64,000 nucleotides of DNA from Syntrophorhabdaceae bacterium. Its GTDB lineage: Bacteria; Desulfobacterota; Syntrophorhabdia; Syntrophorhabdales; Syntrophorhabdaceae. The position numbers and the translations under genes were made by a program. Under the pieces are notes generated by a model, which was not told the DNA's origin, made no database searches, and worked only from the letters and a program-made list of their open reading frames with translations. The stretch spans positions 32,001-96,000 of the forward strand of contig CAXXUO010000006.1 in NCBI GenBank assembly GCA_963666485.2, written 5' to 3'. This document shows, one piece after another, positions 43,033-63,636 of the stretch; the first letter of the stretch is position 1; each line of letters opens with the position of its first letter.

Positions 43033-44220
43033 ATGGATGTTTTTAAAAAAATGACAATGCTGTCGTTGGAGCAGGCAACCGTACTTCCTTATCTCAGTTA
43101 TCGCCTTGCAATGGACGGAATGAACATCATCAGGCTCGAACACCCGGTCTACGGGGACCCGAACCGGATGATCGGCGAGAACCGCCTGGGCGAGGAAAAG
43201 ATGAACACCTATTTCATGGCCATCAATTCCGGCAAGAAATGCGTGACCCTCGACCTCGGGTCGCCGGAAGGCAAGGAGATCTTAAAGGACCTGATCCTCA
43301 AGCTCAATGTCGATATCTTCGCCACAAACCAGCTGCCGAGGAACTATGAAAAGCTCGGCATCGATTATGCCACGCTAAAATCGATCAAACCCGACATTAT
43401 ATGGGTGGGGCTCACCGGTTTCGGGCCGGACAGCAACGAGGCAGCGTACGACCCGATCCTCCAGGCGCGCGGCGGCCTGATGGAGTTAACGGGAGAAGCA
43501 GGCAAAGACCCCCAGGTCGTCGGCATTCCGCTTCCCGACATGGGGACGAGCGAACACGCCTACGGCCTTGTCATGAAATCCCTCGCGAAACGGGCAATGA
43601 CGGGTGAAGGCAGCCGGATCGACGTGTCGATGTTTATGTCCACGACATCCTGGCTCACGGTCCCCATCACGCTCACAAAATCATTCGGCAACAAGATCTC
43701 GCGCAGGGGCAATACGCACGAGTTTTTCGCACCTGTCTCCGTCTACGAGACGAAAGACGGCTACGTTTACATCGCCGTGGGGAACGACCGGCAGTTCCAG
43801 TCGATGACCCAACTGCCCGGCTTCGAGAAGCTTGCCAAACCCGAGTATGAAAAGAACAAGGGCCGCATTGCGGACGTAAAGAACCTCAATGATATTATCA
43901 ATGAATGCACGCGGCAGAAGACGACCGCCGAAATGATCGAGATGTGCAACAAGGCAACCATCGCAATATCCAAGGTCAACACTGTCGAAGAGGTGATCGA
44001 GGACGTGTACGTCAAGAACGCGATGCTTTCCTCGACAGACCCGAAGACGGGCACGAAGATCTGGATGGCGCCCCCGCCGTTCATGACCGAGTTCCTCAAG
44101 GAATCGAACCGCGCAATGACGTTTCCCCCGAGATTTGGGGAGAACAACGCCGAGATATACGGAAAGATCGGATATTCAGCCGAGAAACAGGCCGGCTTCA
44201 AGGAAAAGGGAGTCATATAG
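43033..44220 (+). CDS. Family III CoA-transferase (CaiB/BbsF-like)
   Basis: GDPNR, INSGKKCVTLDL, AYDPILQARGGLM, catalytic-position Asp in PLPDMG. Confidence 0.92.
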   Translation: MDVFKKMTMLSLEQATVLPYLSYRLAMDGMNIIRLEHPVYGDPNRMIGENRLGEEKMNTYFMAINSGKKCVTLDLGSPEGKEILKDLILKLNVDIFATNQLPRNYEKLGIDYATLKSIKPDIIWVGLTGFGPDSNEAAYDPILQARGGLMELTGEAGKDPQVVGIPLPDMGTSEHAYGLVMKSLAKRAMTGEGSRIDVSMFMSTTSWLTVPITLTKSFGNKISRRGNTHEFFAPVSVYETKDGYVYIAVGNDRQFQSMTQLPGFEKLAKPEYEKNKGRIADVKNLNDIINECTRQKTTAEMIEMCNKATIAISKVNTVEEVIEDVYVKNAMLSSTDPKTGTKIWMAPPPFMTEFLKESNRAMTFPPRFGENNAEIYGKIGYSAEKQAGFKEKGVI

Positions 44221-44244
44221 TCTCCACTTTTGTAAAGAGGATGC

Positions 44245-45204
44245 ATGAGCATCGTCGATGACATCCTGAGCGGTAACGAAAGAAGCGCGGCCCGGCTGAT
44301 CACCAGCATAGAGAACGGGGATGCGAGCGCGTACCGGGATCTCGCGGTCCTCTTTTCCCGTGCGGGCAATGCGCATGTCATCGGTGTGACGGGCCCGGCA
44401 GGCGCGGGCAAGAGCACGCTCGTGGGGCGCCTTGCCGTGGAGATGGCCGGGCGCGGCAGGCATGTCGGGATCATCGCTACGGACCCTTCGAGCGTGAGCG
44501 GAAAGGGCGCATTCCTCGGGGACCGGGTGCGCATGAAAGGGGCCGAGGACCGGGACATATTCATCCGTTCGATGGCCCACCGGTCGTATCCCGGAGGGGT
44601 CGCGAAGGCATCGGCGGCCGCGGCCTACGTCATGGAGGGACTCGGCAAGGACTGCATCATCATGGAGAGCATAGGGGCCGGACAGTCGGACAAAGACCTC
44701 TTTTTCCTGTGTGATACAGTGATCACGCTCTTTACCCCGGAATACGGTGACGATATACAGCTTTTCAAGGCCGGGCTCATGGAGATCGGGGACATCATCG
44801 TTGTCAATAAATCGGACAAGCCCGGCGCGGACGATGCCGTGCGCGAAATTAGCATCGCGGTTGACCGGAGTGCCAGGTCGAATGGATGGCATGTCCCGGT
44901 GCTTGCCTCGCAGGCCGTAAGCGGTACGGGGGTCGGCAACCTCGCGGATGCCGTGGAGGCGCACCGTCTTGCCGTGAAGGGGCATGATAAACTCTCCGAG
45001 AGAAAGGCCGGGCATCTCGAGGCATTCCTGACCGCACTTCTCAAGGAAGAATTGTGGCAAAGGATATCCGACAGGATAACAGGGCACGATGTGTTCAGGG
45101 AATTCTCGAACGAGGTCCTGTCCGGAAAGATGGACCCGTACAGCGCCGTGCATATCATACTTGAAAAATTGGAACGGGAATTAGTAATAGGTAATGGATA
45201 CTAG
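44245..45204 (+). CDS. meaB: MeaB/ArgK GTPase chaperone of B12 mutases
   Basis: GVTGPAGAGKSTL, DPSS, LGDRVRM, FIRSMA, KAGLMEIGDIIVVNKSD. Confidence 0.93.
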   Translation: MSIVDDILSGNERSAARLITSIENGDASAYRDLAVLFSRAGNAHVIGVTGPAGAGKSTLVGRLAVEMAGRGRHVGIIATDPSSVSGKGAFLGDRVRMKGAEDRDIFIRSMAHRSYPGGVAKASAAAAYVMEGLGKDCIIMESIGAGQSDKDLFFLCDTVITLFTPEYGDDIQLFKAGLMEIGDIIVVNKSDKPGADDAVREISIAVDRSARSNGWHVPVLASQAVSGTGVGNLADAVEAHRLAVKGHDKLSERKAGHLEAFLTALLKEELWQRISDRITGHDVFREFSNEVLSGKMDPYSAVHIILEKLERELVIGNGY

Positions 45205-45264
45205 GAAAAGGCGATAGGCTATAGGCAATTGGCGGTAGGAAAATACGCGAAAGGCTGGCGCTAA

Positions 45265-46425
45265 ATGGACTTCTCGTTGACCACGGAACAAAAATTCTTC
45301 AAGGGGCAGGTGTCACGCGCTCTCGAGCGTATTGTCGCGCCGTTCGCGGATTCCATCGACAGGACCGATGTGTTCCCCGGGGAGCTTTTCCGGGAACTCG
45401 GCGCACTCGGGTATTACGGGATACGCTATCCGTTGGATATAGGGGGGATGGGCGCCGACTGTATATCTTTCACCATACTGGCCGAAGAACTTGCACGGGC
45501 CTCGATCGGGTTTGCGGCGATCGTGACGATGCAATGCCTCATGGGAACAGACTTCATATACCGGTTCGGGAATGCTGAACAGAAGAAGAACTACCTCATC
45601 CCGGCGATCAAGGGCGAAAAGATCGGCACGATCGCGTTCACCGAGCCGGATTGCGGCTCCGACCTCGGCGGGATCAAGACGCGGGCGGTGAGGACCGACA
45701 GGGGATATGTACTGAACGGCCGCAAGCTCTGGATCACGGACGGCGACGTCGCCGATTTCGTGACCGTTGCCGCGACTACCGACCCGTCAAAACGGCTCAG
45801 CGGGATCGGCTTCTTCCTGGTCCCGAAAGGCACGCCCGGATTTACGACAGGCCAGAAGATCGAAAAAATGTCGGCCCGGGGGGCGGCGACGATGGAGCTC
45901 ATATTCGACGAGTGCCAGGTGCCCGCGGACAGCCTCATGGGAGAAGAAGGGAAGGGCGCAAAATACCTAAATGACATATTGAGCGAGATCAGGATCATGA
46001 TCGCGGGTTTAGGGCTTGGCCTTGCAAAAAGCGCTTTCGTGGCGGGCCTCAAGTATGCCCGTGAGCGCGAGGCGTTCGGCAGGCCGATCGGTAAATTCCA
46101 GCTCATCGAGGAGAAACTGGCCGAGATGGAGGTAAGGATAAAGTCCGCGGAACTTTTGACCTATCACGCGGCATGGCTCAAGGATACAGGGCACTTAACG
46201 GGCAAAGAGGCCGCCATGGCGAAATTCTATTCGACGGAAACCGCGTGCTATGTCGTCGACGAGGTATCGCGGATCCATGGCGCGTACGGGCTCGCCCAGG
46301 AATACCCGGCACAGAGGTATTTCCGGGACGGCCGGTTCCTGCTCTTCGGCGGCGGGACGTCCGAGATATTAAAATCGATCATTGCAAAAGATATAATGAA
46401 AAGATCCGATTTCGAGATCAACTGA
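45265..46425 (+). CDS. Acyl-CoA dehydrogenase family protein 1
   Basis: FTEPDCGSD, LNGRKLWIT, REAFGRPIGKFQ, HGAYG, GGGTSEI. Confidence 0.93.
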   Translation: MDFSLTTEQKFFKGQVSRALERIVAPFADSIDRTDVFPGELFRELGALGYYGIRYPLDIGGMGADCISFTILAEELARASIGFAAIVTMQCLMGTDFIYRFGNAEQKKNYLIPAIKGEKIGTIAFTEPDCGSDLGGIKTRAVRTDRGYVLNGRKLWITDGDVADFVTVAATTDPSKRLSGIGFFLVPKGTPGFTTGQKIEKMSARGAATMELIFDECQVPADSLMGEEGKGAKYLNDILSEIRIMIAGLGLGLAKSAFVAGLKYAREREAFGRPIGKFQLIEEKLAEMEVRIKSAELLTYHAAWLKDTGHLTGKEAAMAKFYSTETACYVVDEVSRIHGAYGLAQEYPAQRYFRDGRFLLFGGGTSEILKSIIAKDIMKRSDFEIN

Positions 46426-46436
46426 AGGAGGGGTGT

Positions 46437-47585
46437 ATGAATTTTGCTTTTACGGAGGAACAGGAATTCTTCAAAAAGATCGTAACGGACACGGTCGACA
46501 AGATGGTCGTGCCCAAGGCGCGCGAGATTGATGAGAAGGATGAGTTCCCCTGGGAATTGTGGAAGGATTTTACGAAGCTCGGGTATCTCGGTCTGCGTTA
46601 TCCCGAGGAGATAGGGGGCATGAATGCCGACCCCGTAACGGCGATGATCTTCTATGAGCAGATCGCGCGCGGCTCAGTCGGTTTTGCACAGAGCGTTATC
46701 ATGAATATCCTCATGGGGACGTATTTCATCTACCGTTTCGGGTCACAGGCGATCAAGGAGCGCTGCCTCTATCCGGCCATGCGGGGCGAAAAGATATCGA
46801 CGATGTGCTTCACGGAGGACCAGTCGGGTTCCGACCTCTCCGCGACACGCACCACCGCCGTGAAGGACGGTAACGAGTGGATCATAAATGGCACGAAGAT
46901 GTGGATAACGAACGGCCCCGTGGCCGATTTCGTGACCGTCCTCGCAACGACGGATTTATCCCTCGGTGCGAAAGGCCTTAACTTCTTCCTGGTAGAAAAA
47001 GGGACCCCCGGATTTTCCCCGGGCCAGGTCCTCGACAAACTGGGATGCCGCGGCACCGTGACGGGCGAACTGGTCTTTGACAACGTCAGGATACCGGAAG
47101 AGAACCTCCTTGGTGCCGAGATCAATAAAGGCATCGAGTACCTCGGGGAGATCCTCGACGAGGTGCGCGTCATGACCGGCGCGATGGCGATGGGGATAGC
47201 CCAGGCCGCCTACGACGAGGGGCTCGAGTATGCCCGCAAGAGGATAGCGTTCGGCAAGCCGATTGGCAGCTATCAGCTTATCAGAGCCAAATTCGCGGAC
47301 ATGGCAACGGAGATGGAGGCCTCACGGCTCCTCATCTATTCCGCGGCGTGGAAGATGAAGGAAAAGCTGCCGAGCCGCATCGAGGCCGCGATGGCAAAAA
47401 TGTTCGCGACGGAGACATGCTGCAGGGTCGTGGACGAGGTGACGAGGATCTGGGGGGCGAACGCGTTCGCCAATGAATACAACCCGGCGCGTCATTTCAG
47501 GGATGCGCGCTTCCTCCTGTATGGCGGCGGCACGCACGAGATACTGAAAGATTTCATGGGGCGGCTCCTTATAGGCAAGGCATGA
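46437..47585 (+). CDS. Acyl-CoA dehydrogenase family protein 2
   Basis: FTEDQSGSD, INGTKMWITNG, RIAFGKPIGSYQ, GGGTHEI; RBS GGAGG, start ATG 46437. Confidence 0.93.
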   Translation: MNFAFTEEQEFFKKIVTDTVDKMVVPKAREIDEKDEFPWELWKDFTKLGYLGLRYPEEIGGMNADPVTAMIFYEQIARGSVGFAQSVIMNILMGTYFIYRFGSQAIKERCLYPAMRGEKISTMCFTEDQSGSDLSATRTTAVKDGNEWIINGTKMWITNGPVADFVTVLATTDLSLGAKGLNFFLVEKGTPGFSPGQVLDKLGCRGTVTGELVFDNVRIPEENLLGAEINKGIEYLGEILDEVRVMTGAMAMGIAQAAYDEGLEYARKRIAFGKPIGSYQLIRAKFADMATEMEASRLLIYSAAWKMKEKLPSRIEAAMAKMFATETCCRVVDEVTRIWGANAFANEYNPARHFRDARFLLYGGGTHEILKDFMGRLLIGKA

Positions 47586-47628: not shown

Positions 47629-48399
47629 ATGAACATCATAGTCCTGGTAAAACAGGTCCCCGACCCGGAAGCGCTCGTGGAGATTGCCGCGAGCGGAAAA
47701 GACCTTAATATCGAGCCCAAGTTCGCAATAAACCTCTTCGACGAATTCGCACTGGAAGAAGCCCTGCGGCTCAAAGAGAAGCACGGCGGCTCTGTGAAGG
47801 CCATCTGCCTCGGCGGCCCGAAGGCGATAGAGGCCCTGCGTACCGCCGTTGCAATGGGGGTGGATGAAGCGGCACTCATAGAGGACGAGTCATTCACCGG
47901 CCGTGACGGGTACGACACAGCGCTCGTCTTGAGTCGGGCGCTCAAGAACGAGACGTACGATATCATCCTGTGCGGGCGGCAGGCCATAGACAGGGACAGG
48001 GCCGAGGTGCCGCAGATGGTGGCCCAGTTCCTCGGCATTCCCCATGTCGGCGTTATTGTAAAGCTCGACATTGCTGACGGTAAGGCGACCGCGGAATCCG
48101 CCCTCGAGGGTGTGGCCGAGGTTGTGGAAGTGGGGCTTCCCGCTATTTTTACAGCCCAGAAAGGGCTGAACGAGCCGCGGGTCCCTTCCATTGTCGGCGT
48201 CATGAAGGCCATGAAAGTCCAGATACCGAAGATCACGGTGGACAGCCTCGGCGTATCGCCGGATGCCGGGCAGAAGACATCCGTAGAGCGATACCTGCCG
48301 CCGAAGAAGCGGCCGGCCGTGCAGATCATCGAGGGAGAGCCCGCGCAGGCGGCGGCGGAGATCGTACGGATCCTCGTCGATGTCGAACGGGCCATATAG
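47629..48399 (+). CDS. etfB: Electron transfer flavoprotein beta subunit (FixA)
   Basis: VLVKQVPD, FDEFALEEALRLKE, GRQAID, NEPR. Confidence 0.95.
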   Translation: MNIIVLVKQVPDPEALVEIAASGKDLNIEPKFAINLFDEFALEEALRLKEKHGGSVKAICLGGPKAIEALRTAVAMGVDEAALIEDESFTGRDGYDTALVLSRALKNETYDIILCGRQAIDRDRAEVPQMVAQFLGIPHVGVIVKLDIADGKATAESALEGVAEVVEVGLPAIFTAQKGLNEPRVPSIVGVMKAMKVQIPKITVDSLGVSPDAGQKTSVERYLPPKKRPAVQIIEGEPAQAAAEIVRILVDVERAI

Positions 48400-48407
48400 G
48401 GGGCGCT

Positions 48408-49385
48408 ATGGACACGATCATTATATTCGTCGAAACGAAAGGTGATGAGATCAGGAAAGCCTCCATGGAGCTTCTGTGCGAAGGTGCGCGGGTCGCTGCC
48501 GGGGGAAAATTTACCGTCGAAGCCGTGTGCGTGGGAACCCTCTCGGAGGGTGTAAAGGCGAGACTCCTCACTATGGCGCCGAAGCTGATTCATCTTACCG
48601 ACGCTTCTCTGGCCGCTTACAGCCCCGAAGGCTATGCATATGCGGTTGCGGGTTATGCCAAAGAATCCGGGGCGAAGATCATCATGGCAGGGGCGACCGG
48701 CATCGGGAGGGATTTCCTTCCCCGTGTTGCCGTCATGCTCGAAGCCGGGATGATATCGGACGCCACCGTGGCAAACTGGGACAGCGACCCGATGACGTTC
48801 ATCCGGCCGCAGTTCGGCGGAAAGGTCTTCGCCGAGGTCTCTTTCCGGACCCCCGTTGTCGTCACGATACGGCCGAACAGCTTTGGCCTCGAAATGCCCG
48901 GCGCCATCGAGGGGCACTATGTCGAAAAACCGGCAGGCATACCGGAGGGAACGGTCCGGACAAAGATCGTACGGCGCGCTGAGCCGCGGGAAGGGACAGT
49001 CGACCTTACGGAAGCCGATCTCATCGTAGCCGGCGGACGCGGCCTCAAGGCTGCGGAGAACTTCAAGCTCATCGAGGACCTGGCAGGCGTTATTGGTGCG
49101 ACCGTGGGGGCGACCCGTTCGGTTGTCGACGCAAAATGGCGCGACCAAACGGACCAGATCGGCAAGAGCGGGAAGACCGTGTCGCCGAAGCTGTACATCG
49201 GTGCCGGCATATCGGGGGCGATCCACCATATCATGGGGATGGACACGTCCAAGGTCGTGGTGGCCATCAACCGTGATCCGAACGCGATCATCTTCAATTA
49301 TGCCAATTACGGTATTGTCGGTGACCTCTTCGATGTGCTCCCGGCAATGACGGAAGAGATAAGGAAACGCAAGGAAAAGGAATAA
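48408..49385 (+). CDS. etfA: Electron transfer flavoprotein alpha subunit (FixB)
   Basis: VAGGRG, QIGKSGKTVSPKLYIGAGISGAIHH. Confidence 0.95.
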   Translation: MDTIIIFVETKGDEIRKASMELLCEGARVAAGGKFTVEAVCVGTLSEGVKARLLTMAPKLIHLTDASLAAYSPEGYAYAVAGYAKESGAKIIMAGATGIGRDFLPRVAVMLEAGMISDATVANWDSDPMTFIRPQFGGKVFAEVSFRTPVVVTIRPNSFGLEMPGAIEGHYVEKPAGIPEGTVRTKIVRRAEPREGTVDLTEADLIVAGGRGLKAAENFKLIEDLAGVIGATVGATRSVVDAKWRDQTDQIGKSGKTVSPKLYIGAGISGAIHHIMGMDTSKVVVAINRDPNAIIFNYANYGIVGDLFDVLPAMTEEIRKRKEKE

Positions 49386-50674
49386 TGGAAAAGATAGATG
49401 CCATCGTGATCGGAGGCGGCCTCGCAGGCCTTTCCGCGGCGTATAAGCTGGCAGAGGCGGGAAAACAGGTCATCCTCCTCGAACGCGGCGATGCACCGGG
49501 AAGCAAGAACGTAACGGGCGGGCGGCTTTACGTCGACCCTATACGGAAATACCTGCCCGGCATTATTGACACCGCCCCGTTCGAACGTCACGTCGTGAAG
49601 GAGATGATCACCGTCCTCGACGACACGAGCGCGGCCTCATTCGAATACACGAACGCGAGATGGCGGCAGGAACCCTACATGAGCTACACGGTGCTCAGGG
49701 CGAGGTTCGACAGCTGGTTTGCCGATCAGGCTGCCGCAAAGGGCGCGTTCATCATCCCCAAAAAGAAGGTGGAAAGCCTCATCTGGGAGGATGGCAAGGT
49801 TGCGGGTATTAAGTCAGGTGCCGAAGAGATAGGCGCTCATGTGACGATCGCAGCGGACGGCGCCCTGTCCTTCATGGCGCAGCAGGCAGAAATGCGCGCA
49901 CCGCACAAGCCGGAGAACCTGGCTGTTGCCGTCAAGGAGATATACCAGCTCGACCGGAAGGTGATCGAGGACCGCTTTGGACTGAAAGACGACGAAGGCG
50001 CTGCCGGGCTTTACATGGGCTCCCTCACGCAGGGCATGTTTGGCGGCGGGTTCCTCTATACGAACCAGGATACGCTGTCGCTCGGCCTCGTGCTTGGCAT
50101 ACACCAGCTTGCGCATAACAACCTCGGCCTTGACGCGCCGTCGCTCATGGAATCTTTTACGGCACGGCCCGAGGTCGAACGGTATATCAGGGGCGCGGAA
50201 CTCAAGGAGTATTCGGCCCACATGATATCCGAAGCGGGGATCGGCACCATGCCGAAACTTGTCAGGGACGGCATGCTCGTTGCCGGCGACGCGGCGGGTT
50301 TTGCCCTGAACCTTGGACTGACGGTACGGGGCATGGAATTCGCGATCGCATCGGGCGTTATGGCCGCCGAGACGGCCATCGAGGCGCTGGACAAGAACGA
50401 CACGTCGGCCGCTGTACTTTCGGGATATGAAAAAAGGTTGCGCGAAAGCTTTGTCCTGCCCGACATGGAAACGTTCAGGAATGCCCGCGAAGTCCTCGAC
50501 AATAAGCGCCTCTTTACCGTATACCCGCGGTTTATCTGTGAAATGTTCGATGAGCTGTTCACGATAGGCGACGGGCCGAAACAGGGCCTTTATACAACGG
50601 CAAAACGTGTCGCAAAGAAATATGTCCTCACCATGGACACCTTAAAAGATTTTCTTGCCGCGAGGAAACTATGA
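49385..50674 (+). CDS. fixC: FixC-type ETF:quinone oxidoreductase flavoprotein
   Basis: GGGLAG, ERGDAPGSKNVTGG, GGGFLYTN, AGDAAG..RGMEFAIASG. Confidence 0.92.
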   Translation: MEKIDAIVIGGGLAGLSAAYKLAEAGKQVILLERGDAPGSKNVTGGRLYVDPIRKYLPGIIDTAPFERHVVKEMITVLDDTSAASFEYTNARWRQEPYMSYTVLRARFDSWFADQAAAKGAFIIPKKKVESLIWEDGKVAGIKSGAEEIGAHVTIAADGALSFMAQQAEMRAPHKPENLAVAVKEIYQLDRKVIEDRFGLKDDEGAAGLYMGSLTQGMFGGGFLYTNQDTLSLGLVLGIHQLAHNNLGLDAPSLMESFTARPEVERYIRGAELKEYSAHMISEAGIGTMPKLVRDGMLVAGDAAGFALNLGLTVRGMEFAIASGVMAAETAIEALDKNDTSAAVLSGYEKRLRESFVLPDMETFRNAREVLDNKRLFTVYPRFICEMFDELFTIGDGPKQGLYTTAKRVAKKYVLTMDTLKDFLAARKL

Positions 50675-50952
50675 CGAAAAAGGTTGAGGAAAAGATCGCC
50701 CTCAATGCGATGAAGAACGATGTGAAGAGCCATATCCTGCTCAACCAGGCGATATGCGCGAACTGCAAAGAGCGCATGTGCATCAAGGTGTGCCCGGCGC
50801 ACCTGTATTCGAAGAACGAGGAAACCGGCGAAATGGTGGTCGAATATGCCGGCTGCCTCGAATGCGGGACATGCCTTGTCGCCTGCACCTATGGCTCGAT
50901 CGTGTGGGACTACCCTTCAGGGGAATACGGGGTTCAATACAGATATGGATAA
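50671..50952 (+). CDS. fixX: FixX ferredoxin-like protein
   Basis: CIKVCPAHLY, GCLECGTC, WDYPSGEYGVQYRYG. Confidence 0.92.
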   Translation: MTKKVEEKIALNAMKNDVKSHILLNQAICANCKERMCIKVCPAHLYSKNEETGEMVVEYAGCLECGTCLVACTYGSIVWDYPSGEYGVQYRYG

Positions 50953-50968
50953 TACCGGGGACCACGGG

Positions 50969-52128: not shown

Positions 52129-52138
52129 GGAGGCATCG

Positions 52139-53767: not shown

Positions 53768-53873
53768 CAAAGATTTCAACGGGCGATGTGTCGCCGAAAT
53801 ACACGGCATGGGTCTGGTCGGTCACCGGATTCCAAACACACCCCGCAAGTAAGACGCCGGGACTCAAAAGCAC

Positions 53874-54236: not shown

Positions 54237-54273
54237 ACCAGGGGTTGGAGAGGTTCTAAAAAGGGGGCAGCTC

Positions 54274-56370
54274 ATGGATGAGAGGTTTTACCGTCTCGGG
54301 TGTGATATCGGCGGGACATTCACGGATTTCGTTTTGCTCAACGACCAGACAGGGGAGATCATGACCGGCAAATGCCTGACGACGCCGCGCGACCCGTCGG
54401 ACGCGGTCGAGGAGGGCATACGTGCGCTCGAACAGGTGACGCCGGACTTTGTCGGAAAGCTGGATGAGATCATCCACGGGACGACGCTTGTCATAAACTC
54501 CATCATCGAAAGAAAAGGCGCCAGGACCGGTCTTATCACGACGAAGGGTTTCCGTGACGTGCTCGAGATCGGACGGGAGATCCGGTATGCGCCATACGAT
54601 ATTTTCGCCGAATTCCCGGAACCCCTCATCCCGAGAAAATACCGTCTCGAGGTCGATGAGCGCATACGCAGCGACGGCACAGTCTTAAAGCCCCTCGACC
54701 CGGAGGATGCGCGCTCGGTTGTCAGGAAGCTTCTCGACATGGGCGTCGAGTCCATCGCCGTGTGCCTGCTCAACTCATTTGAGAACTCTGCCCACGAGCG
54801 CATGATCGAGGAATTGATCGCAAAGGAGGCGCCGGGCATCTCCACGTCGATCTCGTATCACGTGCTCCCGCAGATCAAGGAATATGAAAGGACGAGCACG
54901 ACCGTCACCAACGCGTACGTCAAGCCGCTGACGGGCCGCTACCTGTCGAAACTGTCGGGGCGCCTGAACTCGATCGGCTTTTCCGGCAAACTGTTTATCA
55001 TGCTTTCATCGGGCGGCGTCACGTCGGTCGACACGGCCGCGCAGTTCCCCGTCAGGATCATCGAATCGGGGCCGACGGCGGCCGTTATCGCCGGCCAGTA
55101 TTACGGGAAACACTTCAATATCCCGGAAATGTTCTGCTTTGACATGGGCGGGACCACGGCGAAATCCTGCCTCATCCAGAAGGGCGTCGCGGGCGTTGTG
55201 CCGACCTTCGAAGTGGGCCGTGTTCAGCGGTTCATGAAGGGAAGCGGGCTCACCATTCAGGTCCCGGTTGTCGACCTCATGGAGATCGGGGCGGGAGGAG
55301 GCTCGATAGCGAAGATAAGCAAGCTCGGTACGCTCCAGGTAGGCCCCGAGAGCTCCGGCGCTGACCCCGGGCCGATCTGCTACGGCAGGGGCGGGACGGA
55401 ACCATGCGTCACGGACGCCGATCTCCTCCTCGGCTACCTCGATGAAAATTACTTTCTCGGCGGTACTATGAAGCTCGACAAGGAAGCGGCGCGCCGCGGC
55501 GTCGAGGAGAAGATAGCGAAGCCCCTCGGTGTTTCCTTCATCCAGGCCGTCTGGGGGATCCATGACCTGATAAACGAAACAATGGCCGCCGCGGCAAAGA
55601 CGCACATCGCCGAAAAGGGCGGCAACCCGAAGATCGTCACCATAGCGGCGTTCGGGGGCGCGGGCCCTGTTCATGCCTACGGGCTTGCCACGAAGCTGGG
55701 TTCCCCGCGGATGCTGATCCCGCCCAACGCGGGCGTTGGCTCGGCGATGGGTTTCTTCACCGCGCCGCGCGCATTCGACCTTTTGCGAAGCCACAAGGTA
55801 TCGCTCGGCGATGCGAAGTTCGGCGAGATAGAGGACATCTTCCGGAAGCTCGAGGCGGACGCGGGGGCGATCCTGAAGAAAGAGGCGAGCGGGGATGTCA
55901 TCCGGTTCGAAAGAACGGTCGATATGCGTTTCGTCGGCCAGGGCTCCGAGATGAATATCGGGGTGCCCGACGGCGATTTCACGAAGATAGAAAAAAGCGC
56001 GGTCAGGCGCTATTTTGACGATGCCTACGAGAAGCTGTACGGCCGGACATACCCCGACTCGGAAGTGGAATTCATCAATTTCAAGGTACGGGCAAGCCTG
56101 CCGGAAAAACTGCTGCAGCTCCCGAAAATGGACGGGGCAGGAAGGACGCTCGACCGTGCGGTAAAGGGCGAACGCCTTGCCTATTCACCGATATCGAAGG
56201 ACTTCATCCCTTTTACGATCTACGACCGCTACAATCTCTATCCATCGGCCCGGTTCCCCGGACCTGCAATAATCGAAGAGAAGGAATCGACACTCATCGT
56301 CGGGGAGGGATCCCATGTTTCCGTGGATGATTACGGGTTCCTCTGGGTGGATATGAAGGAGGTGATCTGA
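54274..56370 (+). CDS. Hydantoinase/oxoprolinase subunit A (ATP-dependent lactam hydrolase)
   Basis: DIGGTFTD, HGTT, EYERTSTT, ESGP, DMGGTT, GAGGGS, GPESSGADPGP. Confidence 0.94.
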   Translation: MDERFYRLGCDIGGTFTDFVLLNDQTGEIMTGKCLTTPRDPSDAVEEGIRALEQVTPDFVGKLDEIIHGTTLVINSIIERKGARTGLITTKGFRDVLEIGREIRYAPYDIFAEFPEPLIPRKYRLEVDERIRSDGTVLKPLDPEDARSVVRKLLDMGVESIAVCLLNSFENSAHERMIEELIAKEAPGISTSISYHVLPQIKEYERTSTTVTNAYVKPLTGRYLSKLSGRLNSIGFSGKLFIMLSSGGVTSVDTAAQFPVRIIESGPTAAVIAGQYYGKHFNIPEMFCFDMGGTTAKSCLIQKGVAGVVPTFEVGRVQRFMKGSGLTIQVPVVDLMEIGAGGGSIAKISKLGTLQVGPESSGADPGPICYGRGGTEPCVTDADLLLGYLDENYFLGGTMKLDKEAARRGVEEKIAKPLGVSFIQAVWGIHDLINETMAAAAKTHIAEKGGNPKIVTIAAFGGAGPVHAYGLATKLGSPRMLIPPNAGVGSAMGFFTAPRAFDLLRSHKVSLGDAKFGEIEDIFRKLEADAGAILKKEASGDVIRFERTVDMRFVGQGSEMNIGVPDGDFTKIEKSAVRRYFDDAYEKLYGRTYPDSEVEFINFKVRASLPEKLLQLPKMDGAGRTLDRAVKGERLAYSPISKDFIPFTIYDRYNLYPSARFPGPAIIEEKESTLIVGEGSHVSVDDYGFLWVDMKEVI

Positions 56371-58079
56371 TGGCACGCACATTCGATCCCATCACACTCG
56401 AAATATTATGGCGGCGTCTCATATCGATCGTTGACGAAGCGGACGGCTCCGTTGCGCGGACGGCGTTTTCGAGCCTGCTGCGCGATGCCCATGACTACAC
56501 CTGCATGTTCACCGACCGGTTCGGACGCGAGTTGGCGCAGGGCAGTTTTGCTACTCCGGGACAGTCCGGTGCCATGGCACTCGGGATCAAGAACCTCGTC
56601 AATAAATTCCCCGTCGAATACTACAATGCGGGTGACGCGTTCATCACGAACGACCCGTGGGCCCTTGCCGGGCATCTCAACGATGTCTGCGTCATGAGCC
56701 CGATCTTTTACAAGGACAAACTGGTTGCCTTCACCGCCTGCGTCTTTCACCATTCCGACATCGGCGGGCGTGTGGCGTCGGACAACCATGACGTGTTTGA
56801 AGAAGGCATCTTCATACCGCTCGTCAAGCTCTACGATAAAGGTGTCTTAAATGAGTCCGTGCTCGATCTCATACGGTGGAATGTCAGGACGCCCGATGAG
56901 GTTATCGGCGACATCCGCTCGCAGATCGCGGCGAACCACGTATGCGGCGAAAAGATATGCCAGATGCTCAAGGAAAGCGGCCTGGAGAACTTAGATGACC
57001 TGGCGGACCAGATCATCGGGCTCACCGAAAAGAGCATGCGGGAAGAGATCGAAAAGATCCCGGACGGCATCTACCGTACGCGCGGCGTCATCGAGCAGAT
57101 GAAGGGGTTGAGCGACATCATCATCAATGCAAAGGTCGAGATCAAGGGAAGTGACATCCTCGTCGATCTCGACGGGTCGTCCGGCCAGGTCAACTGGGGC
57201 GGGAACGTCGTCTACAACTTCACCTTTGCGTATGTCTTCATGGCGATCAAGAGCATGTTCGCCCCCGACATCCCGAACAACGAAGGCTGTGCACGCCCCA
57301 TCGCGCTGACGGCGCCCGAGGGAACGGTCATCAACTGCAAGTTCCCTGCGGCGGTTGCCGCACGAATGGGCGTCGGCCATTTCCTCACCGAGGTCATCTA
57401 CCGGGCCCTCTCCGACGTCCTTCCGGAAAAGGTGATCGCGGCATCGGGCGGCACCCCGGCGGCAATGAACGTCTTTTACGGCAAGAGAAAAGATGCAAAG
57501 CCGTGGCACAGCGTTATCATACGGGGCGGCGGCATGGGTGCGGGTGCACGCAATGACGGCAATTACGTCTACATCTTTCCCGCCAACGGCGCGAACACCC
57601 CGGTCGAGATATTCGAGAGCGACACCCCGCTCATTGTCGAGAAACGAGAGATATTGACAGATTCAGGGGGCATTGGGAGAATGAAGGGTGGGCTCGGCAA
57701 ACGGGAGATATTCAAGGTCCCTGATGACGAGTATTCTCCGATGCCGCCTGTCAACCTTGGCATACAGGCCGGCCGGTACATCTACCCGGCGGAGGGGCTC
57801 TTTGGCGGGAAACCCGGTGCACGGGCACAGTTCCTCGTCAACGGTGAACCGGGGAACTCGTACGGGTTGACGCAGCTCAAGCCCGGCGATGTCGTGACGA
57901 TCGACGCCCCGGGCGGCGGCGGGTACGGCAATCCCGTGGAGCGCGACCCGGCGTTTGTCCTCAACGATGTCATGCAGGGCTACGTCAGCATCGACGCCGC
58001 CCGCCTGGAATACAAGGTCGATATTAACCCGGCGACCCTTGAGATCAACGAGGAGGAGACGCGAAAATTAAGGCAGTGA
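56370..58079 (+). CDS. Hydantoinase/oxoprolinase subunit B
   Basis: RTAFS, TNDPW..GHLND, HHSDIGG, NTPVEIFE, PGGGGYG. Confidence 0.94.
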   Translation: MARTFDPITLEILWRRLISIVDEADGSVARTAFSSLLRDAHDYTCMFTDRFGRELAQGSFATPGQSGAMALGIKNLVNKFPVEYYNAGDAFITNDPWALAGHLNDVCVMSPIFYKDKLVAFTACVFHHSDIGGRVASDNHDVFEEGIFIPLVKLYDKGVLNESVLDLIRWNVRTPDEVIGDIRSQIAANHVCGEKICQMLKESGLENLDDLADQIIGLTEKSMREEIEKIPDGIYRTRGVIEQMKGLSDIIINAKVEIKGSDILVDLDGSSGQVNWGGNVVYNFTFAYVFMAIKSMFAPDIPNNEGCARPIALTAPEGTVINCKFPAAVAARMGVGHFLTEVIYRALSDVLPEKVIAASGGTPAAMNVFYGKRKDAKPWHSVIIRGGGMGAGARNDGNYVYIFPANGANTPVEIFESDTPLIVEKREILTDSGGIGRMKGGLGKREIFKVPDDEYSPMPPVNLGIQAGRYIYPAEGLFGGKPGARAQFLVNGEPGNSYGLTQLKPGDVVTIDAPGGGGYGNPVERDPAFVLNDVMQGYVSIDAARLEYKVDINPATLEINEEETRKLRQ

Positions 58080-58112: not shown

Positions 58113-59420
58113 ATGGAACGGCCATTCGACAGTAAAGTGAAATCCGACAAGGAACTGAAGGTACTCCAGCTCAAAGGGCTTAAATGGACGGTCGAACACG
58201 CCTATAAGGGTTCCGCACATTATCGCAGAAAGCTTGACGAGGCGGGAATAACCCCGGACAAGATCAAGTCGCTCGCCGACATTCACAAGCTTCCTTTCAC
58301 GACGAGCAAGGACCTCCAGGAGGGGTATCCATTTCCCTTGAGGAGCGTTCCCTTTGAGAAGGTCGTCCGTATCCACGCATCGAGCGGGACGACCGGCAAG
58401 CGCAAGGTCCTGTGCTACACCGCCAATGATATCGAAGACTGGGCGAACATGTTCGCCCGCTGTTATGCATATGCGGATTGCACGCCCGAAGACAGGATAC
58501 AGATCGCGGTCGGGTACGGTGTCTGGACGGCCGGCTGGGGCTTCCAGAACGGCTGCGAGCGCTTTGGAGCGATGTCCATCCCGATCGGTCCCGGCAATAC
58601 GGACATGCAGTGCCAGTTCCTCGAAGACTTCGGTACGACCGTCATGACATGCACCGCGTCGATGGGGCTTCTCATGGCAGAGCTTATCGAAGAAAGGGGC
58701 CTGCGCGGGAAGATCCCCCTCAACAAAATGATCTTCGGTTCTGAGAGGGCGAGCGATGCGATGCGACAGAGGATATCGGAACTGTCCGGCGTGGCTTTTG
58801 ATCAGCTCTACGATATCCCGGGCATGACGGAGCTTTACGGGCCGGGAACGGGGCTCGACTGCCGGTACCACACCGGGATTCACTACTGGGCGGATTACTA
58901 CATCCTCGAGATCCTCGACCCGGAAACGCTTCAGCCCGTTCCGGAGGGAGAGGTCGGTGAGATGGTGGTAACGACCCTGCGCAAGGAAGGGGCCCCGCTT
59001 ATCCGGTATCGCACGAGGGACCTCACGCGGATCATGACCGATAAATGTCCCTGCGGGAGCCTCATGCCGCGTCACGACAGGATACTTGGCCGCAGCGACG
59101 ACATGTTCATCTTCCGTGCGGTCAACATCTACCCGAGCCACATCGACCAGATCCTGTCGCACATGAAGGATGTCGGGAGCGAATACCAGATACGCCTCTA
59201 CAGAAAGGACAAGGGCGGAAAGGACCACATGATCGTCAAGGTGGAGCGTGCGCAGGGTGTCAAGAAGGACCACGACAGGGACAAGCACATCCGCAAGGCC
59301 ATTGAAAAAGAGATAAAGAGGCAGGTCCTCGTGAGCTGCGACGTGGAAGTCGAGGATTACGGCTCACTCCCGCGGTCCGAGCGCAAGACGAAGCGCGTCT
59401 TCGATGAAAGAGATGCATAA
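58113..59420 (+). CDS. Phenylacetate-CoA ligase-like (PaaK family) aryl-acetate CoA ligase
   Basis: HASSGTTGK, PGMTELYGPG, PLIRYRTRD, GRSDDM, NIYPS. Confidence 0.92.
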   Translation: MERPFDSKVKSDKELKVLQLKGLKWTVEHAYKGSAHYRRKLDEAGITPDKIKSLADIHKLPFTTSKDLQEGYPFPLRSVPFEKVVRIHASSGTTGKRKVLCYTANDIEDWANMFARCYAYADCTPEDRIQIAVGYGVWTAGWGFQNGCERFGAMSIPIGPGNTDMQCQFLEDFGTTVMTCTASMGLLMAELIEERGLRGKIPLNKMIFGSERASDAMRQRISELSGVAFDQLYDIPGMTELYGPGTGLDCRYHTGIHYWADYYILEILDPETLQPVPEGEVGEMVVTTLRKEGAPLIRYRTRDLTRIMTDKCPCGSLMPRHDRILGRSDDMFIFRAVNIYPSHIDQILSHMKDVGSEYQIRLYRKDKGGKDHMIVKVERAQGVKKDHDRDKHIRKAIEKEIKRQVLVSCDVEVEDYGSLPRSERKTKRVFDERDA

Positions 59421-59459
59421 GGGTATTTATCCTTAAAAAGGATCACAATAGGAGGGTTT

Positions 59460-60437
59460 ATGGGGAGCTTTGAATATTACAGGCCCGCAAGCATCGCCGA
59501 GGCCATTGCCCTGATGGAAGGTTCGGGCGGGAAGGGTGTCTATATTGCCGGCGGAACGGATGTCATGGTCCTTATCCGGCAGAAGAAATTATCGCCCGGA
59601 TGTCTTATTTCGCTGCGCAATATCGGTGATATTACCTATCTCGACACGGCCTCCGGCCTTGCGATCGGAAGCGGGGTCACACACAACGCCATAGCGAAGA
59701 ATGATTACATCCAGAAAAAGTACACCGCGCTCACTGACGCGACAAACAGGGTCGGGTCCCTGCAGATCCGCAATGTCGCGACGATGGGCGGAAATATCTG
59801 CAATGCCGCCCCGTCCGCGGATACGGCATGCCCGCTTCTCGTTCTCGATGCGAACGTCGTCATCGCGGGAAAATCGGGCGAACGCATGGTACCGATCGAC
59901 GACTTCTTCCTCGGGCCCAACAAGGTCGCACTCGAGGCCGGAGAGATCGTAAAAGGATTCGCAATGCCAGCCTTTAACGACAAGACAGGGTCCGCGTACA
60001 TCAAGCACACGCGGCGCCAGGCAATGGACCTGCCGATGCTCGGCGTTGCGGCACGCATAACGATCAGGATCGACGGCAATGAGGTTGGCTGCAGGGATGC
60101 GCTCTGCACGACCGACAGCATCTCCAATGTCCTCAAAAGATTCGAAGATGAAAAGCTTATCTGCGAAGACGTCCGGATCGCCATGGGCGTCGTCGCCCCG
60201 CGTCCCATGCGGGCGAAGAAGGCGGAAGCCGCGCTCAAGGGCAAGGTCATTTCGGAGGCACTCTTCGCGGAGATCGGCGAGATCGCCGCGTCCGAATCCC
60301 AGCCGCGCGACAGCATACGCGGCGAGGCATGGTACCGGCGCGACATGGTCAAAGTACTGACGAAGCGCGCAATATTGAGAGCTGTCGATCGAATTATCAG
60401 GCCCGATGACACGATTTGGCCCGAAAGACTCTGGTAA
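59460..60437 (+). CDS. Xanthine dehydrogenase family FAD-binding subunit
   Basis: IAGGTD, QIRNVATMGGNICNAAPSAD, DSIRG..YRR. Confidence 0.93.
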   Translation: MGSFEYYRPASIAEAIALMEGSGGKGVYIAGGTDVMVLIRQKKLSPGCLISLRNIGDITYLDTASGLAIGSGVTHNAIAKNDYIQKKYTALTDATNRVGSLQIRNVATMGGNICNAAPSADTACPLLVLDANVVIAGKSGERMVPIDDFFLGPNKVALEAGEIVKGFAMPAFNDKTGSAYIKHTRRQAMDLPMLGVAARITIRIDGNEVGCRDALCTTDSISNVLKRFEDEKLICEDVRIAMGVVAPRPMRAKKAEAALKGKVISEALFAEIGEIAASESQPRDSIRGEAWYRRDMVKVLTKRAILRAVDRIIRPDDTIWPERLW

Positions 60438-60447
60438 GGAGGGGAAA

Positions 60448-60915
60448 ATGAAAAAAGAGATCACCTTCACTTTAAATAATGAAAAGACAACCGTGGAAGC
60501 CGATCCCAAATGGACCCTTCTTTATCTCCTGAGGGAAGTCCTCGAAATGACCGGCACCAAGGAAGGCTGCGGCTACGGCGAATGCGGTGCGTGCACGGTC
60601 ATCATCGACGGCCAGTCGGTCAATTCGTGCCTGTACCCGGTCATGGAAGCGGAAGGGAAAAATATAGTCACTATCGAAGGCCTCATGACGAAGACCGGGC
60701 AACTCGACCCCATTCAGAAGGCATTCGTGGATGAAGGAGCGGTGCAGTGCGGATTCTGTATCCCCGGCATGATCATGTCGGCGAAGGCCCTTCTCGATGC
60801 CAAGCCGAAACCCACGGAAGATGAGATCAAGGAGAGCATCGAGGGCAACCTTTGCAGGTGCACCGGCTACGTCAAGATAACCGATGCCATAAAATCCGTT
60901 GCCGGGGGGAGGTAA
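60448..60915 (+). CDS. Xanthine dehydrogenase family [2Fe-2S] subunit
   Basis: GCGYGECGACT..SC; QCGFCIPG; NLCRCTGY. Confidence 0.96.
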   Translation: MKKEITFTLNNEKTTVEADPKWTLLYLLREVLEMTGTKEGCGYGECGACTVIIDGQSVNSCLYPVMEAEGKNIVTIEGLMTKTGQLDPIQKAFVDEGAVQCGFCIPGMIMSAKALLDAKPKPTEDEIKESIEGNLCRCTGYVKITDAIKSVAGGR

Positions 60916-60917
60916 TT

Positions 60918-63203
60918 ATGGACGGGCTGAAATTCGTTGGAAAAAGGATACCCAAGAAGGACGCGCCGCTCAAGGCGACAGGCGAAGCGATCTATATCCA
61001 GGACCTGAAAGTCCCCGGTATGCTGTATGCCAAGATCCTCTACAGCAAATACCCGCATGCGAAGATCGTGAAGCTCGATACCTCGAAAGCGGCTGCCCTG
61101 CCGGGTGTGAAGGCGGTACTCACCGGCGCGGACATCCCGAACAATTTCAAGTTCGGTTTCCTGAAAGACAATCCTCCCCTGAAGTCCGGCAAGGTGCTGT
61201 CCACCCGTGATGAAATAGCGGCCGTGGCGGCGATAAGCCCCGAGATCGCCGAAGAGGCGATCGACCTGATAGAAGTTGAATACGAGGAATTGCCGGGCAT
61301 CTTCGACCCCATCGAGGCGATGAAGGAAGGTGCCGCGCTGCTCCATGAAGAAAACAAATCAAACGTCCTCAAGCTCCCCTGGAAGTTCGTCCACGGGGAT
61401 GTCGAAGCGGCGAAGGCGGAATCGGCTTTCGTTGCAGAGGACTCATTTTCGACGCAGTGGGTCACCCACTGCTGCCTCGGCACGAGCGGATGCGTCGCGT
61501 CGTTCGACGTCGGGAACAATCTGACGATGTACAGCAACACGCAGATCCCGTCGCTTGCCCAGAATGATTTCCTCGAGGCCTTGAAGGCGCTCGGGCTCAA
61601 GAATAAAAGGGTGCGGATCATCCAGACCGTCATCGGCGGGGGTTTCGGAAGCAAGCTCGATACCTATGCGTACGAGTACATTGCGATCTTTCTTGCATTC
61701 AAGACGAGAAAGCCCGTTAAGCTGGTCTTTTCGCGGGAAGAGGAGTTTCTCGCAACGTCACCGCGGCAGCCCACGATAACGAAGATATCGCAGGGGTGCG
61801 ACAAGGACGGAAAGCTCACGTTCCGCGAAATGACAATGGTCCTTGACAACGGCGCGTACACATCGTGGGGCGCAACGACGCCGTCCGTCATGATGGTGCC
61901 GATATCGTCCCTCTACAAGGTGCCGAACATCAAGTACACGGCAAAGTGCGTCTATACGAACAACACATACAGCCAGGCGTTCAGGGGATACGGGAACCCG
62001 CAGGCGACATTCGCGATCGAGTCATGTCTCGACCAGCTCGCGGAAAAGGCCGGGATCGACCCGCTGGAAATCCGGCGGATCAACGCGAACGAACCCGGTG
62101 AGGTGACCCCGCAGAACTTCCGCATCACCTCGTGCGGGATGAAAGACTGCATAGAAGAGGTGAACAAACGGCTTGACTGGAAGGGTAAGCACGGCAAGGG
62201 AGACGGAAGAGGCGTCGGGATGGCGTCCCTCATACACGTCGGCGGTGCGGCACGTGTGTACAAATCCGATGGCTGCGGGACGATCATCAAGGTCGATGAC
62301 AACGGCAAGGTCGATGTTATTACCGGGTCATCCGAGATAGGGCAGGGATCGGACACGATCATCGCCCAGATTGTCGCGGAGGTGCTCGGCATCCCTATGG
62401 ACGATATCAACGTCATCAATAACGATACAGACGTCTGTCCCTGGGATGTCGGCGTTCACGCCAGCAGGACGACGTTCGTTGCAGGCAATTCCGCGCTCGG
62501 TGCGGCGCAGAAGATAAAGGCGCAGATCATGGAGATCGCCGCGAAGAGCCTCGGCGAGGCGGCTGATGCGGTCGATATGAAAGACGGCATCATTTTCTCC
62601 AAAAATGACAAGGAGAAGAACATCCCGCTGAGCAAGGTCCTGCGCAAGGCGCATTACACCCTGGGCGGCAGGATGCTCGTGGCGGAGCATTTCTATGACC
62701 CGCCGAACGAGAATTTCGACCAGACGTTCCGGGGCAACCTGTCCGTCGCGTATGCGTACGGCGCACACGGCGTCGAGGTCGAGGTCGACAGGGAGACGGG
62801 ACAGGTAAAGATACTGAACTATATAGCAGCCCACGATGTCGGCAAGGCGATCAACCCCATGCTCCTCGAAGGCCAGATTTATGGCGGCGGCCTGCAGGGC
62901 GTCGGCTATGCCCTCGGTGAGCGGATGATCTGGGACAAGGGCGTTCTGAAAAACGGCAATTTCCTTGATTACAAGATGCCGACAGTCAAAGACGTCCCGC
63001 CCGTACAGGCAGTTATCGTCGAATCAGACGAGCAGGCGGGCCCCTTCGGGGCAAAAGGCATCGGGGAGCCGGGCCTCGTTCCCACGGCACCTGCACTTGC
63101 GAATGCCATCTATGACGCCGTCGGCGTGCGGATCAAAGACCTGCCCATCACGCCGGAAAAGGTCCTGAGGGCCCTCAAGGAGAAAGAGGGGCAGAAGGCT
63201 TAA
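60918..63203 (+). CDS. Xanthine dehydrogenase family molybdopterin-binding subunit
   Basis: GGGFGSK, AFRGYG, GQGS, ASRTT, GPFGAKGIGEPG. Confidence 0.95.
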   Translation: MDGLKFVGKRIPKKDAPLKATGEAIYIQDLKVPGMLYAKILYSKYPHAKIVKLDTSKAAALPGVKAVLTGADIPNNFKFGFLKDNPPLKSGKVLSTRDEIAAVAAISPEIAEEAIDLIEVEYEELPGIFDPIEAMKEGAALLHEENKSNVLKLPWKFVHGDVEAAKAESAFVAEDSFSTQWVTHCCLGTSGCVASFDVGNNLTMYSNTQIPSLAQNDFLEALKALGLKNKRVRIIQTVIGGGFGSKLDTYAYEYIAIFLAFKTRKPVKLVFSREEEFLATSPRQPTITKISQGCDKDGKLTFREMTMVLDNGAYTSWGATTPSVMMVPISSLYKVPNIKYTAKCVYTNNTYSQAFRGYGNPQATFAIESCLDQLAEKAGIDPLEIRRINANEPGEVTPQNFRITSCGMKDCIEEVNKRLDWKGKHGKGDGRGVGMASLIHVGGAARVYKSDGCGTIIKVDDNGKVDVITGSSEIGQGSDTIIAQIVAEVLGIPMDDINVINNDTDVCPWDVGVHASRTTFVAGNSALGAAQKIKAQIMEIAAKSLGEAADAVDMKDGIIFSKNDKEKNIPLSKVLRKAHYTLGGRMLVAEHFYDPPNENFDQTFRGNLSVAYAYGAHGVEVEVDRETGQVKILNYIAAHDVGKAINPMLLEGQIYGGGLQGVGYALGERMIWDKGVLKNGNFLDYKMPTVKDVPPVQAVIVESDEQAGPFGAKGIGEPGLVPTAPALANAIYDAVGVRIKDLPITPEKVLRALKEKEGQKA

Positions 63204-63216
63204 AAAAGGGGGGAAT

Positions 63217-63636
63217 ATGAAGATCGAAAGGATCGATCACATATGCTTTGCGGTCAGTGACCTCGAGGAGACGAAGCGCGTGTACCGTGAGGATTTCGGT
63301 CTCGTTCCTGCGTGTGAATATACCGCCGAGTCGGAGATGATAAAGGTGTCGCGCTATTACATAGGCGAGGTTGCGGTGGAGTTCATGGAATCGACCTCCC
63401 CCGATGGAGAGGTTGCCAAGTTTATTGAAAAACGCGGTGAAGGTGTTTTCCTCATTTCGTACAAGGTCGACGACCTGCCGAAGGCGATGAGGGAGCTTGA
63501 AGAAAAGAATGTTGAACTCATCGATAAGAAGCCGCGGGAACTGTTCGGGACGCGGTATGCATTCGTGCATCATCCCAACAAGCTTCATGGGGTGTTGACG
63601 GAATTGCTGGATGGGGAGTTTGACATCAATAAATAG
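63217..63636 (+). CDS. VOC-family protein, methylmalonyl-CoA epimerase-like
   Basis: IDHICFAVSDL, EFMES..FIEKRGEG, FVHHP..GVLTEL. Confidence 0.8.
   Translation: MKIERIDHICFAVSDLEETKRVYREDFGLVPACEYTAESEMIKVSRYYIGEVAVEFMESTSPDGEVAKFIEKRGEGVFLISYKVDDLPKAMRELEEKNVELIDKKPRELFGTRYAFVHHPNKLHGVLTELLDGEFDINK

Follow-up and report, generated by a model that had tools for sequence, protein, structure and literature searches.

A near-core operon of the Syntrophorhabdales resembling the anaerobic indoleacetate (iaa) operon, with a non-orthologous ligase and lactamase

Indoleacetate (auxin) is a waste product of tryptophan. The DNA analysed here, a window of 64,000 nucleotides on contig G000:C6 of genome G000, comes from a Syntrophorhabdaceae bacterium of a methane community and carries a block of 18 genes resembling the iaa operon of anaerobic indoleacetate degradation; positions are numbered on the whole window. 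All 18 open reading frames (ORFs) lie on the + strand between 43033 and 63636 in one uninterrupted run, with start codons present and mostly purine-rich sequence upstream, and are separated by gaps of -4 to 60 nt with a single exception of 506 nt (Table 1). Families were called with profile hidden Markov models (HMMs) and curated cut-offs, which MeaB and both mutase subunits exceed, and our calls agree for all 18 genes with the families named in an earlier note made from this sequence alone. As that note also recorded, the operon contains no hydratase or thiolase gene; candidates exist elsewhere in the genome. Its extent of the block holds for the genes, but the unit is larger and includes a divergent TRAP transporter and five co-oriented genes past the window end. 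The operon is real and near-core in its order, the Syntrophorhabdales, and represents a variant of the iaa pathway known from Aromatoleum, two of its steps being non-orthologous. We regard it as a conserved strict-anaerobe form of this pathway, likely degrading indole-3-acetate (probability about 0.7); IaaB and IaaCE would here be replaced by a ligase of PaaK type and an unrelated lactamase that depends on ATP. The comparison draws on gene content, clade membership, motifs, co-occurrence and a common operator motif, and every chemical step is assigned by homology.

Table 1. Features of the operon and its surroundings, in window positions unless a contig is given.
Feature	Position	Strand	Basis or remark
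TRAP transporter dctPQM	39653-42586	-	divergent from operon; profile calls
Divergent promoter region	42829-42934	both	between dctPQM and CoA-transferase gene
Family III CoA-transferase, IaaL clade	43033-44220	+	36% to IaaL; sole IaaL match in genome
MeaB GTPase, B12 chaperone of mutase	44245-45204	+	TIGR00750 above cut-off; single copy in genome
ACAD1, accessory IaaF-clade dehydrogenase, FGGG motif	45265-46425	+	46% to IaaF; tree, motifs
ACAD2, core IaaF-clade decarboxylating dehydrogenase, YGGG motif	46437-47585	+	42% to IaaF; tree
EtfB and EtfA, likely non-bifurcating	47629-49385	+	directly after ACAD2; profile calls
FixC and FixX, flavoprotein and ferredoxin predicted to oxidise ETF	49385-50952	+	only copy in genome
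GntR (FadR-type) regulator	50969-51688	+	profile call; 28% to Aromatoleum iaa GntR
Split B12 mutase, IaaG/IaaH clade	51727-53767	+	53/56% to IaaG/H; tree; pocket motifs
REP-like repeat array, not a gene	53768-54273		between mutase and hydantoinase A; palindromic repeats
ATP-dependent hydantoinase/lactamase A and B	54274-58079	+	35/30% to IaaC/E
PaaK-family arylacetate-CoA ligase	58113-59420	+	profile and structure-database matches
Mo hydroxylase FAD subunit	59460-60437	+	IaaIJK-type set
Mo hydroxylase FeS subunit	60448-60915	+	IaaIJK-type set
Mo hydroxylase Mo large subunit	60918-63203	+	IaaK clade, support 1.0
VOC protein, epimerase-like	63217-63636	+	methylmalonyl-CoA epimerase model 88.6 bits; TIGR03081 cut-off 115
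Five genes past the window end: saccharopine-dehydrogenase-like, class III transaminase, second three-subunit Mo enzyme	G000:C6:96016-102148 (L101:4017-10149)	co-oriented with operon	

The iaaF primer sequence from the literature matched 28 loci, one of which (L027, Aromatoleum buckelii U120) has a full iaa-type operon and served as reference; A. aromaticum EbN1 is not among the 28 matches. The reference genes were labelled by order and family. Naming of genes B, F, G, H, L and M follows PMC8360864 and that of CE follows PMC8453981; A, I, J, K and R are the customary iaa letters. Eight more Rhodocyclaceae loci were added (17 genomes with a match among 101 searched), and 61 of 301 Desulfobacterota genomes searched have an IaaH-clade mutase (at least 54% identity), 40 of these loci being retrieved. 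Because relatives are not independent, all co-occurrence counts across genomes are descriptive. The genome-wide best matches of IaaC, E, F, G, H, K and L all lie within the window operon, which carries the genome's only mutase, only family III transferase and only hydantoinase. Identities to the A. buckelii proteins are 56% for IaaH, 53% for IaaG, 46 and 42% for IaaF, 46% for IaaK, 36% for IaaL, 35% for IaaC and 30% for IaaE.

The split mutase retains the carboxylate-binding Tyr and Arg of methylmalonyl-CoA mutase (MCM) structures, while the HCQTSG and HTNS segments of MCM are replaced by Gly-rich and ALCS segments common to IaaH; the pocket motifs IGRG.WIFP, GGGG and ALCSYDE are common to the window mutase and IaaH, and absent from MCM structures. 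Such a Gly-rich pocket would fit a bulky aryl-dicarboxyl-CoA, and the enzyme is a predicted arylsuccinyl-CoA mutase. An isobutyryl- or 2-hydroxyisobutyryl-type mutase was rejected because Tyr and Arg are retained, which also argues against a skatole/2-arylpropionyl-CoA route. A plasmid search for the mutase returned only generic mutases at no more than 46% identity.

The paired acyl-CoA dehydrogenases (ACADs) described in the earlier note are indeed present, both standing in a clade with IaaF (support 0.947) and having GGG instead of YEG; a GGG motif defines the IaaF subclass of ACADs in the available part of PMC8360864. ACAD2 has an unusual TEDQ FAD loop. ACAD1 was seen in the order only where the genome also has ACAD2; an obligate heteromer of the two was rejected because many genomes of the order have ACAD2 only. 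The CoA-transferase groups with IaaL (SH support 99) against five other transferases, in a tree that carries a long-branch warning. The large subunit of the Mo hydroxylase is 46% identical to Aromatoleum IaaK; its identity to seven further copies from Rhodocyclaceae is 49-51%, and their motifs (YSNTQ, GAYTSWGATT, WDVGVHASRTTF and GxGE) are nearly the same. By themselves, the small FAD and FeS subunits are not diagnostic of IaaIJK membership. We rejected 4-hydroxybenzoyl-CoA reductase (HBCR) as an identity for this enzyme because it has no HcrB-type 4Fe-4S insert, has GAKGIGE instead of GAKE and scores 651 bits, below the TIGR03194 cut-off of 995.

The idea of an iaa-like chemistry, and of proteins grouping with those of Aromatoleum, therefore stands for the mutase, the ACADs, the Mo large subunit and the CoA-transferase (IaaH, IaaF, IaaK and IaaL clades) as well as for synteny, but not for the ligase and the hydantoinase pair, which fall outside IaaB and IaaCE. 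The window ligase was rejected as IaaB because it belongs to the PaaK family, whereas Aromatoleum IaaB belongs to the long-chain acyl-CoA ligase family; IaaB matches in the genome lie outside the operon (28-34%). Desulfobacterota operons with IaaCE carry ligases 58-66% identical to it. Identity of the hydantoinase pair to IaaC/E (35/30%) does not exceed that to unrelated hydantoinases (35-40%); the pair forms separate clades, and has a full Asp-His-Asp-His metal site where IaaE has Gln for the first His; it was accordingly rejected as an IaaCE orthologue.

A synteny survey across Desulfobacterota, as proposed earlier, revealed a gene order conserved across many families. Many of the 40 loci have the same order of transferase, ACAD, ETF (electron-transfer flavoprotein), FixCX, mutase, hydantoinase, PaaK ligase and Mo enzyme, with either true IaaCE or the window-type lactamase in the hydantoinase slot. 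Bridging operons with true IaaCE (55-60% for C, 70-72% for E) have the same gene order, and their transferase, mutase, ligase and Mo large subunit are 52-75% identical to those of the window. The mutase loci of 19 of 20 relatives also hold the CoA-transferase, hydantoinase A and ligase, and among metagenome hydantoinase B loci of at least 15 kb (36 of 80 retrieved) a mutase is found in 35 of 36 and the ligase in 33 of 36. Such recurrent co-location in relatives shows that the gene block is not a product of chance. Within the order, a mutase of at least 65% identity occurs in 55 of 61 genomes, hydantoinase B in 69 of 83, ACAD2 or ACAD1 matches in 71 of 83 and the saccharopine-dehydrogenase-like gene in 60 of 83, so that the gene set is near-core; hydantoinase B, the ACADs and the dehydrogenase-like gene are absent together from 11 genomes, six of them in one genus.

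The distribution of lactamase types was examined on a mutase tree of 40 rows (quick LG+G4), from which 17 near-duplicates and rows of unknown lactamase type were excluded; the test was made after an earlier FastTree had been viewed, and one IaaC-type label comes from a partial gene. The lactamase label changes six times on this tree, at least three changes being forced by well-supported branches, and a single clade for the window-type lactamase is rejected (p-AU 0.0007). All 24 genomes with the window-type lactamase have an IaaH-clade mutase (201 searched), as do 20 of 21 genomes with IaaE of at least 68% identity (301 searched), and no genome has both. The alternation points to enzyme swapping within one pathway, and repeated replacement of one step would be the simplest reading of the lactamase pattern. 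A third lactamase clade occupies the slot in one archaeal genome and in G093. The archaeal case, one of 261 genomes searched from an archaeal phylum, combines the mutase with an adjoining IaaF-like gene and the third lactamase clade, and has ETF, transferase and PaaK-like ligase genes nearby. In this archaeal cluster (L269-L270, G532) an aldehyde-ferredoxin-oxidoreductase-like gene follows the mutase, and no XDH-type hydroxylase was found within the 60 kb examined.

Read as an indoleacetate pathway, the genes would act as follows. Indoleacetate would be taken up by the TRAP transporter and converted by the PaaK-type ligase to indoleacetyl-CoA, which the Mo enzyme would hydroxylate at C2 with water. 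Ring opening of the oxindole by the lactamase would give (2-aminophenyl)succinate, free or as the CoA ester; the CoA-transferase would place CoA on the right carboxyl, and the B12 mutase with MeaB would form (2-aminobenzyl)malonyl-CoA. Oxidative decarboxylation by the GGG-type ACAD2, with ACAD1 as accessory, would yield 2-aminocinnamoyl-CoA, the electrons presumably passing to the non-bifurcating EtfAB, on to FixCX and then probably to the quinone pool. Beta-oxidation genes elsewhere in the genome could lead to 2-aminobenzoyl-CoA, whose amino group may be removed by a second Mo enzyme before a Bam-type benzoyl-CoA reductase acts.

The window ETF has GRQAIDRDRAEV where four aligned bifurcating ETF structures have a G(R/K)Q..DGDTAQV loop, which we take to be an FAD site. 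By analogy with Fix systems in general, the electrons would go on to quinone and, through reverse electron transport, to H2 or formate. The ETF, an added feature in the earlier note, is not new: for the iaa operons predicted in strict anaerobes, the available part of PMC8360864 already describes a non-bifurcating ETF paralogue encoded next to iaaF, as well as three IaaF paralogues in Desulfocarbo indianensis. A fixed link of ETF to FixCX is not mentioned in that part of the source. According to the same text, IaaF used only O2 in vitro and its physiological electron acceptor is not known. When clusters are split, three modules persist: the transferase through the Mo hydroxylase, then ACAD2-EtfBA-FixCX (together in all four relocated loci retrieved), and the second Mo enzyme-VOC-dehydrogenase-transaminase. 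A dedicated electron-carrier chain would explain re-oxidation of the decarboxylating step, and a unit that stays together even when relocated makes the acceptor question directly testable. G032 (99% complete; L242, L243) retains ACAD2-ETF-FixCX and VOC-dehydrogenase-transaminase, and its mutase and lactamase were not found with the queries used.

A predicted operator is likewise common to the window operon and the Aromatoleum iaa locus. Within the divergent promoter region, a strong sigma70-like promoter at 42881-42909 (+) agrees with the consensus at 11 of 12 positions, and a second promoter lies on the - strand at 42856-42829. The region also holds two TGTATACA palindromes, at about 42831 and 42927, which are likely GntR operators. 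The TGTATACA core lies upstream of the GntR gene in seven of nine Rhodocyclaceae iaa loci; it also precedes 39 of 68 related CoA-transferase genes, and there are 28 sites genome-wide. A third site, at about 41482, is located between dctP and dctQ. Copies of the TRAP transporter, 77-87% identical, lie in or beside related clusters, and it is likely the substrate uptake system in place of the binding protein IaaM.

The closest known system is the iaa operon of A. aromaticum EbN1 and A. evansii (known to us via part of PMC8360864), with which the window shares IaaF-, IaaGH-, IaaL- and IaaIJK-clade genes, a hydantoinase-family ring opener, a GntR regulator and the TGTATACA operator. In contrast to Aromatoleum, the window has a PaaK-type ligase instead of IaaB, a non-orthologous lactamase, a TRAP transporter instead of IaaM and no IaaA thiolase in the operon; it adds MeaB, a second IaaF paralogue, EtfBA-FixCX and the VOC protein, and has as linked extras the second Mo enzyme, the dehydrogenase and the transaminase. 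IaaA and IaaM have weak, distant matches elsewhere in the genome (28% and 26-29%). Predicted iaa operons of Desulfatiglans anilini, NaphS2, D. indianensis and Ferroglobus placidus resemble the window in an IaaF orthologue with a dedicated non-bifurcating ETF and in the occurrence of several IaaF paralogues in one genome; the available description mentions no FixCX, swapped lactamase or ligase, second Mo enzyme or Syntrophorhabdales (PMC8360864). The caprolactamase CapAB (PDB 6YRA) is also a two-subunit hydantoinase-family enzyme with an Asp-His-Asp-His metal site (PMC8453981, in part), but the window lactamase scores 516 and 252 bits against cut-offs of 1000 and belongs to another clade with another predicted substrate. 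We found no literature on iaa genes in Syntrophorhabdales or on the alternative lactamase, in a search whose coverage left out most subscription journals; variants with PaaK ligase, FixCX or this lactamase may already be shown in Ebenau-Jehle 2012 or Schuhle 2016.

Several observations weigh against indoleacetate as the substrate, or against the iaa assignment itself. Two of the three substrate-defining entry enzymes, ligase and lactamase, are not Iaa orthologues, so that the substrate could differ. No named or cultured organism with the window-type lactamase was among the best 120 matches of either protein search, and G234 has this lactamase together with a 58-60% IaaCE-like pair at another locus, so both types can coexist. 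The reference is A. buckelii U120 rather than EbN1, its iaa operon being assigned by gene order and family. The known pathway offers no step for the dehydrogenase, transaminase and VOC genes, and a FadB-like fusion, which other families have beside the mutase, was not found in the genome. GGG-like motifs occur in other ACAD branches too (YGG in pimeloyl-CoA dehydrogenases), and A. aromaticum IaaF did not react with its own housekeeping ETF (both from the available part of PMC8360864).

The same chemistry might therefore act on another heteroaryl-acetate, such as a ring-substituted indoleacetate or an O/S analogue, or on a precursor that carries an amine, for instance tryptamine; its processing would then fall to the transaminase, the saccharopine-dehydrogenase-like enzyme and the second Mo enzyme linked to the operon. 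We hold this to be improbable, though far from negligible. It would account for a lactamase whose clade is separate and whose metal site differs, and for a ligase of another family than IaaB, but the PaaK-type ligase and the extra module occur with true IaaCE too, and the Mo active-site motifs are the same with both lactamase types and in denitrifier iaa operons. The amine-handling module does co-occur (besides its frequency in the order, 25 of 26 close orthologues are in mutase genomes) and G234 has two lactamase types; overall, however, the mutase tree shows these types alternating, and they nearly always exclude each other. The other rival, that canonical enzymes (MCM with its epimerase, phenylacetate-CoA ligase, 5-oxoprolinase and HBCR) came together by chance or for housekeeping and serve no single pathway, is largely refuted and highly improbable: the best named HMM and PDB matches are indeed PaaK, HcrA, caprolactamase and methylmalonyl-CoA epimerase, but all are below curated cut-offs, IaaK itself also scores best on HcrA, trees set the mutase, ACADs and Mo subunit apart from generic clades, and gene order is conserved across many families.

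The second Mo enzyme has HcrA as its best match, a GAKE motif and the HcrB-type four-Cys insert, in likeness to HcrCAB (PDB 1RM6) and to the putative 4-aminobenzoyl-CoA reductase of D. anilini (PMC7500099, in part), but scores 619 against 995 bits and lacks the Glu of KEASE (the usual catalytic Glu) and the Gln of the TTQ motif. Stops reported in some of its matches were not internal in the four such loci retrieved, which have full-length ORFs. It occurs in 48 of the 61 mutase genomes (three candidates scored per genome; misses may be false) and was not seen in nine denitrifier iaa loci. D. anilini has HBCR-like proteins, induced by aniline or by 4-aminobenzoate, that were proposed as deaminating reductases, and for strict anaerobes in general only a putative enzyme has been named for the reductive deamination of aminobenzoyl-CoA (available part of PMC7500099). 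As 48 of 49 genomes with the second Mo enzyme carry an Iaa-type mutase, it becomes a concrete candidate for this reductive deamination; that it deaminates a 2-aminoaryl-CoA is possible but doubtful, and an amine-to-acid funnel is a rival role for its module. The VOC protein was called an epimerase in the earlier note, which is doubtful: one metal His is missing (GEGVFLI against GEGVHHI of methylmalonyl-CoA epimerase), its score is below the cut-off, all aligned cluster copies have Phe or Ala plus Leu at this site, and in split clusters it stays with the second Mo module. For the VOC protein, the saccharopine-dehydrogenase-like protein and the transaminase, PDB and Atlas searches gave family-level names only.

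The Syntrophorhabdales are known for the syntrophic degradation of phenol and benzoate. Should indoleacetate be the true substrate, this uncultured order, common in digesters and sediments, would play an unrecognised part in the removal of indolic products of tryptophan, and opening of the oxindole ring would have been recruited at least three times. The widest proposal, that these bacteria are at core scavengers of the tryptophan product indoleacetate, with an independently recruited oxindole lactamase, EtfAB-FixCX as the missing IaaF acceptor and the second Mo enzyme as the aminoaryl-CoA reductive deaminase of strict anaerobes, is unlikely to hold in all its parts. Elsewhere the genome has BamBCDE-like and Bzd-like reductase loci and a crotonase-thiolase-ETF locus (most below curated cut-offs), and an indolepyruvate oxidoreductase above cut-off. 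In one family (L083, L084, L094, L097, L100, L173) the mutase is followed by a 673-aa fusion of hydroxyacyl-CoA dehydrogenase and hydratase; this candidate enzyme for beta-oxidation of 2-aminocinnamoyl-CoA has no full-length match in G000.

The Mo hydroxylases show further variation. The FAD subunit has a Cys-bearing insert of about 30 residues near the C-terminal domain, found in many Syntrophorhabdales copies and absent from IaaI. The subunits themselves are swapped within the genus and elsewhere (L041, L043/L111, L113, L079), with a 54% large subunit beside neighbours of about 90%, and Rhodocyclaceae iaa operons have two IaaK subtypes. Two more HBCR-like Mo enzymes are encoded on G000:C1 (L103, L104), each beside TRAP genes and one with a divergent PaaK-like ligase; they are candidate entry routes for other aromatic acids.

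A gene inside the 506-nt gap was rejected. The gap holds REP-like repeats; their palindromes (GTCATTCC...GGAATCCAG) recur at 63689-63939, thus within and after the operon, and in most relatives the mutase directly adjoins hydantoinase A. On the other flank, a second GntR gene and an HpaB/4-hydroxybutyryl-CoA-dehydratase-family gene (37407-39590) converge on the TRAP genes and are probably unrelated, since they were not seen in the related cluster loci L041-L100. Subunits of succinyl-CoA synthetase type (34786-36933), 6 kb upstream, could provide the CoA donor for the transferase.

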